The translations under genes and the position numbers were made by a program. This document shows positions 57,284 through 64,000 of a stretch of 64,000 nt of DNA, piece after piece. Every line of letters starts with the position of its first letter. The stretch's first letter is position 1. Source of the stretch: a virus. The notes beneath the pieces are model-generated. The model did no database searches and was not told where the DNA came from. It saw only the letters and a program-made list of their open reading frames with translations. The stretch is taken from positions 1 through 64,000 of the IMG/VR virus record IMGVR_UViG_3300042923_000619. The stretch is one strand, 5' to 3'.

Positions 57284-60200
57284 TTATTTTGGGTTTTTTA
57301 ATAAAGCAAGTTGTTTAGCTTGAGTTATAACATCAGTAAATACATCTTTAACTCCACTATCTACATTAGGGAAAGTTAAATCACCAAATTGATATGTAAC
57401 ACTACTTGCAGTTTTATTATTGTTTACTGTTGATACTGCACCACTACCACTCAAAGAATTTAATACACTAGAATTCATTGAATATCCACTTGCATTAGCA
57501 TAGTTTTTATATTGGTCATATACAGATTGGTTATAAAGTGGATTATTAGAATTATCATACAATCCTTTCTTTCCTTCTGTCCATGTAGAGATTTCTTGTT
57601 TATAAGCATTGAATTTAGTTTGTATGTCTGAAATATCTACATCTCCAATATTAACACCCATTTTATCCATCATGTTTCTAAAGTCTTGGAATGCTTCCTC
57701 ACACTGTACAAGTGCTTCCATTACATATCCCATACTACTTTGAGTTATATTTACTATATTTCCAAATCTAAAATCCCAAACCATTTGAACTAATTCTAAG
57801 AATTTATCTTCAAATTTAGTAAACTTATCTGCAAATTGAACTCTACTGTTATACTCATCAGTTTGTGATTTATTTTGTTTATCCAATTCATTTTTATAGT
57901 GAGCATCTTGTTCAGATTCTAATTTATTATTTATATCTACTAGATTTTTATATTGCTCTGACAATCCATCAGAATCAGTTTTTGTAATTTTATCTACTTG
58001 AGTTTTCCTGTCTTTAATATCATCATCTGTTATGTCTACATTCTTTTTAGATACTGCTAATTTTTCATAACTATCACTTAAATCACTTATTGATTTATTA
58101 GCAATTTTTGCACCTGAATCAACACTGTTTAAATAATTTGTTATTCCTTTTACATCTAGATTAGCTTTATCATTTAACTTATCTTTATTTTTATTAAGGT
58201 ATCCTGATACATCTCCACTATTAATTGCTTCATCTTGTTCAGTAGAAGTAAAATTAGCCTGTAATGTTTTTAAATTATTTAATTTTTGAGTTGACTGATT
58301 AACAAAAATAGAAATTGCATTAGAAATATCACTTATATTGTCGTTATATTCTTTCTTTAAAGAACCTAACATAGTCTTTGCCATTCTTTCAGTGTCAGAA
58401 TAATAAGATTCTATTCTTTTCTTATCCCTATCCTGTGTTTCCTTTAAATCATCGGATATTTTCTTTAGATATTCTTTTTTTACATTGTATGCTTTATCTT
58501 CAGCAGTTTTACTATCTTCTATTTTTTGTTTCTCTTTATCATACTCTTGGTCTGATTTTTCTTTATTGTAAGCCTTTTTAGCGTCATCAACTTCTTTTTT
58601 CTTTTTATCAACAGTTTCTTGGTCTATTGCTCCAACATATGAAAACGTATGGTCTGCATTTTCTTTTGCATATTTTACAGTTTTTTGATTTTCAAGATTA
58701 TTAAGTTCAATTTCTTTCTGTTTTAAATCATTTTTCTTTTCTTGCAGTTCATTAGATTTTTCCTCTTCATTATGTTGTTTTTCTAAAGCATTTAATTCAG
58801 CTTCATAATTATCCATTTTAGATTGATGAAGTTGTTCTTGTTGATTTTCTAAATCTTCTAAATCTTTAGTTTGTTTCTTTTGTTGAGATTCTAATGTTGC
58901 TTCTTCAATCTCTTTTTGATTATCAAACATCTTTTTAAGTTCATCAGTGTTAAACTTATCAATTTGTTCTTGCAAATTAGCTACTTCAAGTTTTTCATCA
59001 CGTAATTCTTTCGATGCCTTGAGTGTTGCTGATTCTAATTCTTTTTGTGCTTCAGCAGTAGTTACAGTTGTAGATTTTAATTTATTTAATTGAGTTTCAG
59101 CTTCACTAACAATTTGTTTTTGTTCATTCATTTTTTTAGATGTTAAATCCACTTTTTGAACAAAATTGCTATCATCAGTATCTCCAAGCAATTTTAAATT
59201 ATAATCTATTTCTCCAATATCATTTTCTATTTTATCTTTAGCTTCGTTATATGCGTCCGTGATATCTTTTATCATCTGTTTTTCTGAGTCTTCTAATTCT
59301 TTGTTCTCTTTTTCCTTCTTTTTCTTAGAATCTCCACCAGATGGCATATAATCTCCACTAGCTGAACTTGGGATATTCCCCCCATTTCCACCACTATACG
59401 GAACGCTACCAATACCAGCATATAATGAATCTGCTTGTTGTTTTGCTTTTTCATATGCATGAAGTTGGTCTTGTTGTTGCTTTAATTGTTCAAATTCAGG
59501 AGAATTTTCTTCTAAACTTTGTGCTTTTCCAATACTCATGGTTGAGTAATCTTGAGCACCAGCCATTCTAGCTGAAATAACTGCTTGAATAGCTTGTATT
59601 TCTGCTTTATACATTCCAATTCTATTAGTTATTTCAGCATATGTAACTTGTGAATTACCAACTTGCCATTCAGAATTAACTTTAGCATCAGTAATACGAA
59701 TTGCACTAAGATTATCTACTGTAAGTCCTTCTGATTGTAATCTTTGTATATTAGCTTCAATTAAAGGAGAATTAGAAATATAAGCTTTCCCATTTTCGTC
59801 AATAGATACATTTAATCCACCAACTTTTTCTTGTAATTGTTCAACTACATTCCCTAATTGAGTTTTCTGTTCAGCAGATAAACTTTCTTGAGCTGATAAA
59901 TTTTGATATTCTGAATATAAACTTTGAACAGAAGAAATATAATTATTAAATTCTGTTTGTGCTTGTTCCATATTCTGTCTATTTTCAAGTTGTGCTTTGG
60001 TTTGTTCTTTTATACTATTAATAACTTTAGTATTGTCTATTTTATCTTGTGCCTCAGTAAATTCATTAACTTTTCCAGTAGTTTCATCAATAGTATATCC
60101 AGCATCTTTTAAAACTTTTTCTTGTTCTTCTATTTTTTTATTTACTCCAGCAATTAAATCTGCTTGATTAGCACCACCAGCAGTTGGATTAAATGATGTT

Positions 60201-61015
60201 GTAGGCATATCTTGATATTTCTTCTTAATTTCAATTAATCTTTGTAATTGCTCTTGTGCCTTTTTCATCTTATCAACATCTTCTTGTGCCTTTGATGTAT
60301 CACCATTCTTTAAAGCTTCATTAACACCTTTTAACGCTTCTTTTAATGTATTAGATTGTTGTGTAAGTTCTGCTTGATGTTCCTTATATGATGTAAAAGC
60401 AGTTATTGCAATACCAACTGCAACAGCAATTCCACTTATAATAAGACCTAAAGGAGTAGTCATAAATGCTACAGAACTAGCCACTGCTTCTTTTATTCCA
60501 GTACTTAATAATACCCATGCACCTTTTAAACCAGTTAATCCTTCTGTTTGTGCTATTGCTCCCATTTGTGCTAATTGCATAGCTTTTGTTGCATTAGTTA
60601 CTTCATTTATTGTAGTACTAACTGTAGACATTCCTGTTAATACCGCTATAAATTTACTTAAACCTGTTACCGCTTCACCAGCAATTAATGTTTTATTTAA
60701 AGTTGATAATTTAGACATGACTAATACCAAGCCACCAATTGTTGCAGTAAAAGCTATAGTTTGTCCATCTACATTTGTTAAAGCCGTTACTAATTGTGTA
60801 AACTCAGATACTAACCATTTTAATTGTTCTGAACTTGTTATTTTTTCATATAATTGTTCAAATGCTCTTTTAAGGTCTTGAATACGTGCATCTAGAGATT
60901 GGTTATACGCTTCATCCATCATTTTTTTAGCTGAACCAGCAGATTGTGCAACTTCTTTTTGATGTTGATTTAACGTATCCATATTCTCCATTAATGCCAT
61001 TAATGTTTCTCTTTG
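57284..61015 (-). CDS. Tape measure protein, exon 3
   Basis: Frame QRETLMALMEN... begins at 61015, just after the intron-terminal G; long Ala/Gly-rich hydrophobic and coiled-coil segments. Confidence 0.85.
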   Translation of the reverse strand, partial: QRETLMALMENMDTLNQHQKEVAQSAGSAKKMMDEAYNQSLDARIQDLKRAFEQLYEKITSSEQLKWLVSEFTQLVTALTNVDGQTIAFTATIGGLVLVMSKLSTLNKTLIAGEAVTGLSKFIAVLTGMSTVSTTINEVTNATKAMQLAQMGAIAQTEGLTGLKGAWVLLSTGIKEAVASSVAFMTTPLGLIISGIAVAVGIAITAFTSYKEHQAELTQQSNTLKEALKGVNEALKNGDTSKAQEDVDKMKKAQEQLQRLIEIKKKYQDMPTTSFNPTAGGANQADLIAGVNKKIEEQEKVLKDAGYTIDETTGKVNEFTEAQDKIDNTKVINSIKEQTKAQLENRQNMEQAQTEFNNYISSVQSLYSEYQNLSAQESLSAEQKTQLGNVVEQLQEKVGGLNVSIDENGKAYISNSPLIEANIQRLQSEGLTVDNLSAIRITDAKVNSEWQVGNSQVTYAEITNRIGMYKAEIQAIQAVISARMAGAQDYSTMSIGKAQSLEENSPEFEQLKQQQDQLHAYEKAKQQADSLYAGIGSVPYSGGNGGNIPSSASGDYMPSGGDSKKKKEKENKELEDSEKQMIKDITDAYNEAKDKIENDIGEIDYNLKLLGDTDDSNFVQKVDLTSKKMNEQKQIVSEAETQLNKLKSTTVTTAEAQKELESATLKASKELRDEKLEVANLQEQIDKFNTDELKKMFDNQKEIEEATLESQQKKQTKDLEDLENQQEQLHQSKMDNYEAELNALEKQHNEEEKSNELQEKKNDLKQKEIELNNLENQKTVKYAKENADHTFSYVGAIDQETVDKKKKEVDDAKKAYNKEKSDQEYDKEKQKIEDSKTAEDKAYNVKKEYLKKISDDLKETQDRDKKRIESYYSDTERMAKTMLGSLKKEYNDNISDISNAISIFVNQSTQKLNNLKTLQANFTSTEQDEAINSGDVSGYLNKNKDKLNDKANLDVKGITNYLNSVDSGAKIANKSISDLSDSYEKLAVSKKNVDITDDDIKDRKTQVDKITKTDSDGLSEQYKNLVDINNKLESEQDAHYKNELDKQNKSQTDEYNSRVQFADKFTKFEDKFLELVQMVWDFRFGNIVNITQSSMGYVMEALVQCEEAFQDFRNMMDKMGVNIGDVDISDIQTKFNAYKQEISTWTEGKKGLYDNSNNPLYNQSVYDQYKNYANASGYSMNSSVLNSLSGSGAVSTVNNNKTASSVTYQFGDLTFPNVDSGVKDVFTDVITQAKQLALLKNPK

Positions 61016-62632
61016 CTTTTATATTTATCTAGAATCGCTAAATCTAGACTTGTGTATATATTTTATCATTTAATATATTTATATAATTATTGTTTTTAAA
61101 TTCCCAATATGGAATATTGTTATCTATACAATATGTATTTTTGATATCATCATGTTTCTTTGTGTAAGTATATGATTCTTCTCCACCAAAATACTCAATA
61201 GTTTCAAAATGTTGTCTTCCGTCACATTCAATTAAATATTTTAATTTATTCTCATTGTTTAATATTGCAAAATCAAATGGAAGTGGCAATATATCTTTAC
61301 ACTTATCAATTTTATATTGTGAAATATATCTAATATTATCATTCTCTAAATATTGTTTTACCAATTTCTCTAATAAAGATTCTGCCTTGGTACAACATTT
61401 ACATCTTGTTTGAAAAGATGTTCTAAAATGTTTAAAAGTAACTTCAAAAGGTTGTCCACATTCCTCACATGAAAACAATAAAGGTGTGTCACAATTAACA
61501 TATTCTATTGATAATAATTTATTTTTATAATTGTTTAGTTTTAAATATAATATTATATTATAAATGGTGTGTGGATTAAACTTGCTAAATTTATCAATAT
61601 TACAGTCCTCTTTTTTATAAAGTAGAAAATCTGATAAAGAAATACAATATCTAAATCCAATATCATCTTGAATATTTATCTTAGATTTAGAATTTTTAAA
61701 CTCAGAAGTATTCATGATTTTAAAATTGTATCCTTTAAGTATTTCATTTGCTTTTTCAATATTAATTTTATTTCTTTTATCTCCCCCAGAACATTGTTTA
61801 CACTTTGTTCTTTTCTTATCTTTTAATTCTGCAAATGAAACAGAATACTCTTTCCCACATTTTTCGCAAGTAAACATGAGTTTTCCAACATTATTTATAT
61901 ATTTATCTGATAGTAGTTTATTTTTACAATCATTTAATACCAACCATAATTTAATATTTTCTATAGTATGAGGATTATATTTGCTAAACTTATCTAATTG
62001 TTTATTATATTGAATATACTCATTAAATGATATCTCATATTTATATCCTTCATCGTCATGAATAGAAAATTTAGTCTTACTATTTACATAATCGTCCTTT
62101 ATCATATATAATCCTTTTTCTTTTAATTTATTTTTGACTTGTTGTAAAGTATATTTTACTGGCATATTTCACCTTCTTGTCCTATTTTAATTATATACAC
62201 AACTCATACTTTCATATGAGAATAGACTATTTCTTCACCTTCATCTATTATATTTTTTTATAATAATGTTAAGGGCGTACCTTTTCCATTTAAGGGATTT
62301 TCACCCACTCTAAGCGATTGAGCCGTACTCCTATTGTTCGATTTTCACGAACCTTCTCAGGGATAGTCGTTGAAGATTCCCCATATTATAAATTAACTTA
62401 GGGGCTTACCTGCATGAACAACCATTTTATTATATAATTTGTTTTATATAATTTGTTTTATATAATTGAATACTTAGGATTTAACCTTATATCCATCCTT
62501 ACGTTTTTTCTACTTTCGTCCCTTCATATACTACTTTCGTATATATTGTGGTGTAAGGCTTTAGGTATTACCTGCAATTAAATACGTGTCCTATGCACAT
62601 TTCTGTACATACGAGGCTTTTTCTAAGAAAAA
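61016..62632 (-). mobile_element. Group I intron 2 in the tape measure gene, carrying an endonuclease ORF
   Basis: TAATTGCAGGTAATACC (P region), AACGACTA (R, 62364-62371), GAAATAGTCT (S, 62224-62233), 3' end hairpin plus TAAATATAAAAG. The 5' boundary is uncertain by a few nt. Confidence 0.85.
61044..62165 (-). CDS. Intron-encoded zinc-ribbon/EDxHD homing endonuclease
   Basis: CEKCG and CEECG repeats; LPFDFAI...IECDGRQHF; lies after the S element in the P9 region. Confidence 0.8.
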   Translation of the reverse strand: MPVKYTLQQVKNKLKEKGLYMIKDDYVNSKTKFSIHDDEGYKYEISFNEYIQYNKQLDKFSKYNPHTIENIKLWLVLNDCKNKLLSDKYINNVGKLMFTCEKCGKEYSVSFAELKDKKRTKCKQCSGGDKRNKINIEKANEILKGYNFKIMNTSEFKNSKSKINIQDDIGFRYCISLSDFLLYKKEDCNIDKFSKFNPHTIYNIILYLKLNNYKNKLLSIEYVNCDTPLLFSCEECGQPFEVTFKHFRTSFQTRCKCCTKAESLLEKLVKQYLENDNIRYISQYKIDKCKDILPLPFDFAILNNENKLKYLIECDGRQHFETIEYFGGEESYTYTKKHDDIKNTYCIDNNIPYWEFKNNNYINILNDKIYTQV

Positions 62633-62780
62633 TCTTGTTCCAGCCAAAGCTTGTATTCCTGCTAAGTAATCAACTTGGCTGAGTTGACCACTTTTAAATT
62701 TTTGCATAAATTCTTGCAATACTGTATCAAATTCTTTAAATTGACCTTTATTATTTCTGATTGCGATACCAATTCTATTC
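62633..62780 (-). CDS. Tape measure protein, exon 2 (148 nt)
   Basis: G plus NRIGIAIRNNKGQFKEFDTVLQEFMQKFKSGQLSQVDYLAGIQALAGTR; its length restores the frame between exons 1 and 3. Confidence 0.85.
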
Positions 62781-63065
62781 CATTTATATTCATATAGGCT
62801 CGTTAATTCCTATACCGTTCTCTTATGAACTGCTTATAGTTTCCTATAAGATTAGACTATATCACTATCCTAAATTAATAGGAGACTCACCATTTCCATT
62901 CACTTGAATGTACTTCCCGAAGGAATAGTCGTTAGGCTTTTATATTCTATATAATAGAATAATTTAGCACGGTAGGTTAGCATATTCATTTATGAACTTA
63001 GCCTTCCCCGTATTAAGCGAGTTATTCGAAATGGATTACTCCATTAAGCCACAAGTTTGTCGTTT
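62781..63065 (-). mobile_element. Group I intron 1 (285 nt, no ORF) in the tape measure gene
   Basis: P1 pairing of exon GCCAU with IGS GUGGC (U.G at the splice site); TAATACGGGGAAGGC, AACCGTGCTAA, AACGACTA (62926-62933), GATATAGTCT (62854-62863); terminal G. Confidence 0.9.
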
Positions 63066-64000
63066 ATGGCAAATTCTGTATCGTTAATTGTTTTTCCATC
63101 TTCATCAATATTACCTAGTTTTATATTACTATACCTTGCATAGATAGTTTTAAAACTTTCGCCTATTGTTGAAGCTGATTTTCGCGTTTTCTCAGAAACA
63201 GTTGTAATATATGTGATTAGGTTACTTAGTGGAGTTCCAGCCTCCTGTGCACTAAATGCTGTACGTTGTATTGCTGTTGCTATCTCAGCAAAGCTCGTAG
63301 CAGAAACATTGTCCATCTTACTCATCATATCTACAACATTCTGCATTCCTTCACCAGTCATATTAAAGGCATTTTTAATAGCAATTAATTGTTCAGTAAC
63401 TTGTGCAGTTGTTTGACCAGAAAGTTTAGAACCCATAATAGAAGCAGACATTAACGCTTCTCCTTCTTTTCCATCAAAACCTGCTCTAGTTACTTCTTCC
63501 ATACCCTTCATCATTTCTGCATTTGTTGTATGTAATTGTTCTCCTAATTGCTTATAATTATTAACTATATCAACTATTTCACCTTTGGATTTTCCAGTAA
63601 TCATCTGCATATTAGTCATTGACTTATCCATTTGAATAGTATAATTAACAGCATCTTTTAATTGACTTGTTATTTCTTGAACTACTTGTTGAACGCCATA
63701 AAAAATTCCAACCTTACTTAAAAAATTACTTAATCCACTAAAAAATCCACCATTATTAGTTTCTTTTAAAGAATTAACTAGTTGTTTGGTTTCATTAGTA
63801 GTTTGTTCCATTGATGATTTAACAGTATTTAAACTGTTTCTAATATTATTAAAATTAACATTATCAGTTTCTTTTAATTTACTTAACAAACTGTTTAAAT
63901 CTTTAGTTGTAGACTCCACAAATCCATTAGGTAATTTATTTCCAAACTTTTGTTGCAATTTTTCAACCTGTGAAATTGTATTATTTATATCTTTAGTTAA
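63066..64000 (-). CDS. Tape measure protein, exon 1 (5' part beyond the window)
   Basis: TP901-like TMP core: DKSMTNMQMITG, SATSFAEIATAI, RKSASTIGESFKTIYARY. Confidence 0.88.

Follow-up and report, generated by a model that had tools for sequence, protein, structure and literature searches.

Group I introns have been described in the tape measure genes of Bacillus cereus-group prophages, where they are known as TMP-IVS1, TMP-IVS2 and TMP-IVS3 (Tourasse & Kolsto 2008, PMC2504315). In phage Twort, three group I introns and exon skipping were reported for the tail tube gene orf142 (Landthaler & Shub 1999, as summarized in PMC11878797). Group B IStrons comprise BcISt1 and the CbISt elements found in C. 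botulinum and in phages of that species (Tourasse et al. 2014, PMC4227781). RT-PCR and sequencing revealed that BcISt1 splices after a G and that its intron begins with U (PMC4227781). Finally, I-Bth0305I is an EDxHD homing endonuclease encoded in an intron within recA in Bacillus phage 0305phi8-36 (PMC3239194; PDB 3R3P). Group I introns in tape measure genes having been described already in 2008, the present case is a well-documented further example.

The locus belongs to a large, uncultured, Clostridium-type phage. Its genome is a metagenomic assembly of roughly 196 kb with an estimated completeness of 79%, and the phage is assumed to be viable. When queried against isolated phages, exon 1 has homologues at no more than 26% identity and exon 3 has no tblastn match, which indicates that there is no close cultured relative. 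The tape measure gene reaches into the window (the whole stretch of DNA that was analyzed, 64,000 nt), where it is, with a probability of about 0.9, interrupted by two independent self-splicing group I introns of subgroup IA2. What is shown is the sequence anatomy, the model matches, the homology, the fold of the encoded nuclease and the colinearity with alleles that lack the introns; splicing and homing themselves are inferred. The gene is organized as follows.

64813..63066, minus strand: exon 1, 582 amino acids (aa) plus 2 nt, of which 63066..64000 lies within the window
63065..62781, minus strand: intron 1, 285 nt, a td-like group IA2 ribozyme with no ORF, ending in omega-G (AAAUG)
62780..62633, minus strand: exon 2, 148 nt, one base finishing a Met codon plus 49 codons (NRIGIAIR...LAGTR)
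62632..61016, minus strand: intron 2, 1617 nt, group IA2, with an endonuclease ORF in its 3' part, ending in omega-G (AAAAG)
61015..57284, minus strand: exon 3, 1243 codons plus stop, beginning QRETLMALMEN..., based on the ORF list and the spliced frame

A first-pass annotation of this DNA had the reading frame broken twice at these positions, and the ORF list, the sequence and the splice reconstruction place the breaks exactly there. Exon 1 starts (MADSFKSS...) at genome position 64813, which lies beyond the window and was taken from the genome sequence, and ends at 63066, reading ...GAATTTGCCAT. It matches PF10145 PhageMin_Tail (E = 4.8e-20, profile positions 4 to 145 of 201), and the match breaks off at profile position 145, where intron 1 starts. 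This domain match, together with full-length homologues named tape measure proteins, identifies the product as a tape measure protein of the TP901 type (PF10145). Joining the three exons yields a single coding sequence of 5628 nt (1875 aa) with zero internal stops and the predicted reading ...DTEFAM-NRIGIAIR...LAGTR-QRETLMAL. The alignment with intron-less homologues that had been proposed as a check is gap-free at both junctions. Over the 189-aa junction region, the spliced product is 76% identical to the uninterrupted homologues P0019/P0016 with zero gaps, and P0023, P0020 and P0010, also uninterrupted, align likewise. Uninterrupted Clostridium tape measure proteins in general run through both junctions without gaps, and the homologues, which are 1700 to 2065 aa long, contain PF10145. 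At the two insertion sites, the intron-less allele L039 reads ...GCCATGAACAGAATTGG... and ...GGAACAAGGCAAAGAGAAACA...

The group I nature proposed for both breaks is borne out by full-model matches to Rfam RF00028, by blastn and by the colinearity described above. In narrow scans, intron 1 scores 74.5 bits (E = 2.3e-19, full model 1-253), exceeding the gathering threshold of 50 bits. Intron 2 scores 42.8 bits on 62637..62203 (E = 1.1e-9, full model), which is below the threshold, as are the validated control introns in the same kind of search (td type, 49.5 bits; T4 nrdB, 35.7 bits; lysK, 33.4 bits). No group I match was returned by a whole-window Rfam scan at the gathering threshold or by a 2.7-kb scan at E<=10, and a whole-genome RF00028 search found intron 2 only, missing intron 1 entirely. 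These blanks are due to the speed filters of Infernal: left at their default settings, they make Rfam scans overlook such introns in AT-rich phage DNA, so that a negative whole-genome scan is no evidence of absence. Reading the wide-scan negatives in that way was rejected in view of the narrow-scan scores and the similar behavior of the controls. The first-pass annotation would have given up the group I reading if covariance models matched nothing; the narrow scans match both introns, and a refutation drawn from the blank whole-window and 2.7-kb scans would be false.

All the group I core motifs quoted for the two breaks could be located. AACGACTA occurs at 62933..62926 (intron 1) and 62371..62364 (intron 2), and GA(T/A)ATAGTCT at 62863..62854 (intron 1) and 62233..62224 (intron 2). 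In the whole 196-kb genome, GACTA...ATAGTC in an R/S context is found in two places only, namely the two introns. Covariance-model alignment locates the P3-P8 pseudoknot, P4-P6, and a P7 formed by the R/S elements in both, and P9 and further 3' hairpins are likewise present. The last base of each intron is the omega-G (...AAAUG|G for intron 1, ...AAAAG|C for intron 2). By blastn, both resemble validated phage introns, among them those of T4 td and nrdB, phage K lysK, Twort and r1t. P7.1/P7.2 and an extended P9 region place the two in subgroup IA2. Their 3' ends had been said to match. This holds for the layout, in which a hairpin precedes an A/U-rich tail with a final G, but the mutual similarity is weak (27 nt, 78%, E = 0.055). 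At 43% global identity, the introns are not twins and represent different lineages.

Intron 1 displays the following features.

63048..63070, minus strand: P1, exon GCCAU and intron AA with the guide UUGUGGC, from the covariance-model alignment
63044..63046, minus strand: in-frame UAA, 7 codons beyond the 5' splice site (read-through ...A-INDKLVA, then stop)
62925..62933, minus strand: R element, 5' strand of P7, AACGACUAU
62854..62863, minus strand: S element, 3' strand of P7, GAUAUAGUCU

The textbook P1 (GCCAU/GUGGC) recognized in the first-pass annotation was confirmed by the covariance-model alignment, with GCCAU(AA) at 63070..63064 opposite (UU)GUGGC at 63054..63048 and, at the 5' splice site, a canonical U.G pair. 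P7.1 spans 62925..62914 and P7.2 spans 62910..62897. Helices P1 to P9.1 could all be mapped on intron 1, and an unconstrained minimum free energy fold recovers P2-P6, P7.1, P7.2, P8, P9 and P9.1.

For intron 2, the boundaries were set from L039, an intron-less allele, and from the orthologous intron that L038 carries. Its features are listed below.

62203..62632, minus strand: ribozyme core, from the covariance-model alignment
62611..62592, minus strand: P2
62586..62581/62281..62276, minus strand: P3
62576..62571/62417..62411, minus strand: P4
62404..62379, minus strand: P6
62368..62363/62230..62225, minus strand: P7, followed by a P7.1/7.2 block
62274..62238, minus strand: P8
62220..62203, minus strand: P9
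62421..62566, minus strand: P5-loop insertion, 146 nt, unaligned in the covariance model, with about 2.6 copies of a 14-nt direct repeat
62591..62593, minus strand: in-frame UAG in P2, 13 codons beyond the 5' splice site (...TR-FFLEKASYVQKCA, then stop)
61016..61047, minus strand: 3'-terminal hairpin CUAGA...UCUAG, overlapping the endonuclease stop and followed by the tail AUAAAUAUAAAAG, with omega-G at 61016
61044..62165, minus strand: predicted homing endonuclease, 373 aa, within intron 2
62625..62632, minus strand: UUUUUCUU, the first 8 nt of intron 2, a candidate P1+P10 guide
62614..62617, minus strand: family-type guide GCCU, adjoining P2

Between P7 and P3', intron 2 holds an 85-nt block that includes a GUUCG/CGAAC hairpin. 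The N terminus of the encoded protein consists of two tandem modules of ~130 aa, each with a CxxC...CxxC zinc ribbon, and residues about 260-373 form a Vsr/EDxHD-type nuclease domain. Profile searches match PHROG 559 (1.9e-51) and phrog_9084, annotated as homing endonuclease (5.5e-25). According to an all-against-all structural aligner, the AlphaFold2 model (mean pLDDT of 88) is closest to the catalytic domain of I-Bth0305I (3r3p_B; Z 9.8, rmsd 2.9 Å, 91 of 98 residues), followed by Vsr (1cw0; Z 9.4), Z-scores that are just modestly above the aligner's typical background of 7-8. Foldseek with the whole model against the PDB returned nothing at E<=0.001, phmmer against PDB sequences nothing at E<=1, and Pfam and NCBIfam gave sub-threshold zinc-ribbon and MTES_1575 matches only. 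D298, E313, H319 and K342 are invariant (E313 and H319 in 40/40), while D339 is kept in 39/40 and D315 in 35/40. A tblastn search of the phage's own genome revealed no paralogue. The ORF is predicted to encode an active homing endonuclease of the I-Bth0305I (EDxHD/Vsr-like) type.

Intron number, presence and position vary freely among close relatives, one allele being fully intron-less. Relatives carry 0 to 3 introns in the tape measure gene region, at at least 8 sites, and a C. botulinum relative has three within about 80 codons. Intron 1 shares 87-88% identity with introns located 32 codons upstream in L013 and L038, which places its lineage at two sites 96 nt apart. This distribution bears on the suggestion of the first-pass annotation that the two introns gate virion production, with splicing efficiency or exon skipping tuning the supply of tape measure protein and the timing of virion formation. 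Full-length protein logically requires both splicing events, and there are precedents for exons being skipped by tandem group I introns, in Twort orf142 and in Bastillevirinae phages (PMC11878797). Moreover, exon 2 has a length of 3n+1 (148 nt, no multiple of 3), so that skipping it shifts the frame and would give a truncated product ending ...EFAIKEKH. However, close relatives have 0, 1, 2 or 3 introns at different sites, one of the two introns bears a homing endonuclease, and the sequence yielded no conserved regulatory feature, with sites resembling promoters or terminators occurring at chance level in the scan. The suggestion is unsupported, and we consider such a gate unlikely. Because their number and sites vary among relatives, the introns are better seen as selfish mobile elements than as a conserved regulatory gate.

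The 5' splice site of intron 2 deviates from the canonical U.G pair, the last exon base being A (AAGA|UUUUU). In relatives, the guide GCCU base-pairs with AGG at the end of the exon, and the G of the guide with the U that opens the intron; guide and exon covary in 15 insertion contexts. The intron 2 family is represented on 19 viral contigs. In seven insertion contexts, three of which were verified on DNA sequence from intron-less alleles, the junction comes right after the base paired with the invariant C of the guide. In all seven, the intron ends in omega-G and guide position 1 is complementary to the base that opens the 3' exon. For L022, a protein-seeded search finds an intron-less allele, an exact-match search with the L022 5' exon having found none, and the L022 3' junction was set with intron-less alleles. 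The L038 orthologue has G as its last exon base, as fixed at the DNA level against the intron-less L039. In the present copy, the terminal A forms an A.C mismatch with the family guide, and good pairing is offered only by the copy-specific UUUUUCUU. Of these 8 nt, 7 are complementary to the junction of the ligated exons (AAGA|CAAA), which makes them a candidate P1+P10 guide specific to the present copy; by comparison of 5' ends, they are missing from the L038 and L013 orthologues. The predicted ligated junction reads ...GGAACAAGA|CAAAGAG.

A tentative reading, to which we give somewhat less than even odds, is that, with intron 2, the shifted 5' splice site of the BcISt1 type extends to a lineage of phage introns that is widespread and bears endonucleases. 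A G-C pair would then replace U.G at the cut, the cut itself would be displaced by one base in the 5' direction from the U.G position, and the next guide base would pair with the first 3'-exon base. As a further part of the same reading, the exon would have changed synonymously from AGG to AGA, and the new 8-nt guide would have been acquired in response. Since UUUUUCUU pairs with both exon ends, intron 2 would splice after the A. The non-U base at -1 matches the experimentally demonstrated BcISt1-type exception and is therefore no argument against group I membership.

Candidates with a canonical U at -1 were also considered; the in-frame alternatives give a stop or an intron that does not end in G, except for UUUUU|CUUA. 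In this model, which we regard as quite unlikely, the U.G site lies five bases further in, with a P1 of UUUUU/GAAAA closed by a CUUA loop, cleavage after 62628 and a 3' splice site after CAAAG (61011). The join stays in frame, the intron still ends in G, and the Rfam alignment puts the model's conserved splice-site U on the final base of the UUUUU run. A product of unchanged length would result, reading ...AGTRFLETLMAL, from ligated exons AGATTTTT|AGAAAC. However, CAAAGAGAAACATT is exon sequence in both the intron-less L039 and the orthologue L038, and Q-R/K is kept in all close homologues. L038 lacks the UUUUUCUUAG stretch, and hence any such alternative, yet its intron occupies the same site, and the whole family splices after the base paired with the guide's C.

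That the introns no longer splice, leaving separate tape measure pieces (exon 1 of ~590 aa, exon 3 from an internal ATG at 61000) or a dead gene in a defective phage, is very unlikely. In its favor, gene callers treat the ORFs as separate both in this phage and in its relatives, exon 3 contains, 15 nt from its start, an ATG accompanied by a weak purine-rich stretch, and the P1 of intron 2 is mismatched. Against it, the ribozyme helices and omega-G are all intact. Exon 2 lacks its own start codon but stays in frame and is 62-76% conserved with homologues, the RBS-like stretch of exon 3 is ordinary coding sequence that is also found in intron-less alleles, and across 5.6 kb of exon sequence there is neither a stop nor a frameshift.

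With both introns self-splicing, late transcription would be followed by the folding of each intron as a ribozyme. Free guanosine would attack the 5' splice site, and the released exon end would attack the bond after the terminal G, rejoining the three exons into a single mRNA for the 1875-aa tape measure protein. At intron 2, the 5' exon would end in a purine (A here, G in relatives), the usual last-exon U being the first intron base. The stop codons located 7 (intron 1) and 13 (intron 2) codons in would hold ribosomes away from the ribozyme cores. The endonuclease presumably cuts intron-less alleles, into which the intron would be copied through repair. We propose that the introns are selfish passengers with no designed control of tail assembly, tolerated because they splice.

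The general picture of group I introns is unchanged by these findings. Gene callers split the tape measure gene into three or four 'genes', both in this phage and in many phages and prophages of the Clostridium type, and the true, spliced product of 1875 aa bears on the predicted tail length. The conserved stretch encoding PhageMin_Tail is an intron hot spot (at least 8 sites, up to three introns per gene) and provides useful material for studying mobility. In addition, the intron 2 family, with its purine at -1, supplies more natural substrates for studying BcISt1-type 5' splice-site choice.

Like the introns of the present phage, the TMP-IVS introns are group IA1/IA2 elements in a tape measure gene, and some prophages also have two of them in one gene; in both cases, close relatives are fitted to different nearby sites via P1 and are patchily distributed among related phages. 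In contrast, the present phage is of the Clostridium type with a 196-kb genome, the insertion sites differ, intron 2 retains an intact EDxHD endonuclease, and the C. botulinum relative packs its three introns into about 80 codons. Twort orf142, as far as the summary in PMC11878797 describes it, likewise combines several group I introns and short internal exons in one tail structural gene, with skipping possible. However, it is another gene in another phage family, and skipping in the present gene would shift the frame.

Intron 1 resembles the validated IA2 introns of T4 td and phage K lysK in P4, P7 (R/S), P7.1/7.2, the 3'-tail pattern and the canonical U.G 5' splice site, with 70-81% blastn identity over 100-190 nt. 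It differs in having no ORF and in residing in a virion gene rather than a thymidylate synthase or lysin gene. The lysK junctions were checked (ACGGGU|AAAU...AAUCG|GAUGG); its P1-P2 layout is like that of intron 2, whose junction lies one base upstream. As with I-Bth0305I, the endonuclease is encoded in a phage intron and shares the Vsr-like C-terminal catalytic fold and conserved acidic/His residues. The phmmer search above detected no sequence similarity between the two, and the N-terminal DNA-binding part of the present enzyme is built from tandem zinc-ribbon modules.

Group B IStrons are IA2 elements in which the 5' exon ends in G, not U, and the intron opens with the U of the U.G pair; the intron 2 family has the same one-base shift. 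Intron 2 differs in that it bears a homing endonuclease instead of IS607-type transposase ORFs (ORF A/ORF B), ends in AAAAG rather than CGG, and follows an exon ending in A rather than G. A blastn search with the 5' part of intron 2 against C. botulinum phage records found no IStron link. Intron 2 is not an IStron, though its 5' splice site, judged by sequence, appears to work like those of BcISt1-type ribozymes.

The tape measure gene lies on the minus strand, where the ORF list gives three frames for the region:

ends at 63044, minus strand, frame containing PhageMin_Tail
62165..61044, minus strand, 373-aa ORF
61000..57284, minus strand, 1238-aa frame

The source record is 196,135 bp long with direct terminal repeats, the window being its first 64 kb; in the genome sequence, the PhageMin_Tail frame starts at 64813 (MADSFKSS...). 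Joining 64813..63066, 62780..62633, and 61015..57284 yields a 5628-nt coding sequence of 1875 aa with one stop, which is terminal, and with junction peptides ...DTEFAM-NRIGIAIR... and ...ALAGTR-QRETLMAL... (hyphens mark junctions). Because the joined pieces give this single frame with the predicted junctions, the coordinates, the 148-nt exon, and the peptide joins proposed in the first-pass annotation proved exact.

The PF10145 match in exon 1 (E 4.8e-20) reaches only position 145 of the 201-position profile, breaking off at the start of intron 1. A protein search with exon 3 retrieved uninterrupted homologues of 1700 to 2065 aa with PF10145, several of them annotated as tape measure proteins of Clostridium botulinum and other Clostridium, as well as fragments of 1140 to 1310 aa without PF10145, which are split genes too. 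The comparison with intron-less homologues that had been proposed as a check bore the joins out: the 189 residues spanning both align without gaps to five uninterrupted homologues (62 to 76% identity), and the DNA of an intron-less allele, L039, is colinear and uninterrupted across both insertion sites. On this evidence, the interrupted gene is a tape measure gene and both joins appear real. We infer splicing, its exact junctions, homing, and any exon skipping from the sequence; skipping of exon 2 would shift the frame and end it at ...EFAIKEKH, followed by a stop.

Covariance models had also been proposed as a check. Scanned across the whole window, and at E<=10 across 2.7 kb, the Rfam group I model gave no match. 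In narrow scans, however, intron 1 scored 74.5 bits (311 nt, 62770-63080; E 2.3e-19) and the intron 2 core 42.8 bits (481 nt, 62170-62650; E 1.1e-9), both over the full model. Since control introns score 49.5 (td-type), 35.7 (T4 nrdB), and 33.4 bits (phage K-type lysK), a subthreshold score is normal for phage IA introns and the negatives are filter artifacts. The default Infernal/Rfam filters missed both introns in the two wider scans and lost the 74.5-bit match genome-wide as well, while scans of 300 to 500 nt recover both; AT-rich phage DNA seems prone to such misses.

By blastn, both cores are similar to the validated td-type, T4 nrdB, and phage K-type lysK introns, plus those of Twort and r1t. 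The P7.1/P7.2 block, the mark of subgroup IA2, is present in both, and the R and S elements (P7 strands) occur in context at only two loci across the whole genome, namely, the two introns. The upstream frame runs 7 codons into intron 1 and 13 into intron 2 before a stop, an arrangement often described for phage introns. The first-pass reading of a tape measure gene split by two group I introns is right. At only 43% global identity to each other, the introns belong to different lineages. The 146-nt P5-loop insertion of intron 2 includes a stretch (62427-62467, minus strand) in which the 14-nt unit AAUUAUAUAAAACA is directly repeated about 2.6 times; no function is suggested for it.

The ORF of intron 2 matches homing or HNH endonucleases in PHROGs (1.9e-51); Pfam and PDB sequence searches with it were uninformative. 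In an AlphaFold2 model (40 homologues, mean pLDDT 88), the C-terminal domain, compared with 48,161 chains, is closest to the I-Bth0305I catalytic domain (Z 9.8), followed by Vsr (Z 9.4). D298, E313, H319, and K342 never vary, while D339 is conserved in 39/40 and D315 in 35/40. The modeled protein is interpreted as a homing endonuclease of the EDxHD type that carries two zinc-ribbon modules for DNA binding at its N-terminal end.

At the 5' junction of intron 2, exon ...AAGA meets intron UUUUU..., making A the last exon base. The same junction in L038, a C. botulinum assembly, is AAGG-AAAC, unambiguous at the DNA level against L039. A canonical 5' site would instead place the cut after UUUUU and join it to AGAAAC; although this stays in frame, it is at odds with exon conservation and with L038. 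The cut after AAGA also fits the intron 2 family, collected as 19 viral contigs that share its 27-nt P2 motif. Across 15 contexts, four guide bases adjoining P2 covary with the exon; guide base 2 is always C and faces G in 14 of them, and A in intron 2 of the window. In the seven contexts where junctions can be fixed (three at the DNA level), the exon ends at the G facing this C, the next U or A is intronic, the intron ends in omega-G (7/7), and the 3' exon begins with a base complementary to guide base 1 (7/7). In this lineage, the canonical U.G position appears shifted one base into the intron. The lysK intron has the same P1-P2 layout but a canonical splice site. What sets intron 2 of the window apart, by this comparison, is that position -1 is A and that the intron opens with an additional UUUUUCUU; this stretch is complementary to AAGA-CAAA at 7/8 positions and may act as a replacement guide.

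The lineage is widespread among uncultured phages, where it interrupts tape measure genes and others besides. In a human fecal phage (L018:2990-3420, MT835469.1), a relative of the intron 2 core has P1 CAGGCA/UGCCUG without a U.G pair; by the register rule of the family, it would splice after C.

Related tape measure genes differ in intron number and position:

L039, allele encoding the homologous protein P0019: none in the tape measure region
L010, metagenome: one, at IYSR-YSNIK
L013, metagenome: two, a td-like intron at SAETI-GESF, 32 codons upstream of site 1 (the intron 1 insertion point), and an ORF-less intron 2 relative, displaced 7 nt
L015, metagenome: one, whose ORF is of NUMOD/HNH type
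L038, C. botulinum assembly: three

The L038 introns are a td-like one at SAETI-GESF, a member of the intron 2 family within a few bases of site 1, and an orthologue of intron 2, whose 382-aa endonuclease is 42% identical to that of the window. They lie within about 80 codons (L038:3414-5985; GCA_019836845.1, JACBBZ010000009.1) and measure 280, 444, and 1601 nt, the last with the endonuclease; L039 is a nearly identical allele of this locus. Further tape measure genes carry intron 2-family members at QYQ(R/Q)E-YN and GSAEKE-N. Intron 1 (62781-63065) is 87 to 88% identical to the td-like copies at L013:5039-5329 and L038:3414-3693. The two sites of this intron are 96 nt apart, and the 5' exons end in CCAU at both, fitting one shared guide, which suggests that it moved to a new site matching the same guide sequence. 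In another tape measure gene, a gap of ~240 nt (L034:2613-2856) at ...RNRFITL-MNNYDD, seven residues downstream of site 2 (that of intron 2), is probably a further intron site. Downstream of the L038 tape measure gene, the tail module holds a TnpB-like gene (L038:12232-13623; Pfam Cas12f1-like_TNB). For the earlier suggestion that the two splicing events could gate virion production, the only support is logical; the pattern among relatives shows mobility, not regulation.

Precedents exist for introns in tape measure genes (2008), for several introns in one tail gene (reportedly Twort, 1999), for EDxHD endonucleases (2011), and for splicing after G (2014). The mobility seen among tape measure relatives follows the same pattern as TMP-IVS1/2/3 in B. 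cereus-group prophages (Tourasse and Kolsto 2008, PMC2504315). For the IA2 ribozyme of BcISt1, an IStron (IS/intron hybrid), RT-PCR and sequencing showed that the 5' exon ends in G and the intron begins with U (Tourasse et al. 2014, PMC4227781). Group B IStrons, among them the elements found in C. botulinum and in its phages, have this one-base shift in common (PMC4227781), and intron 2 would therefore follow a known exception.
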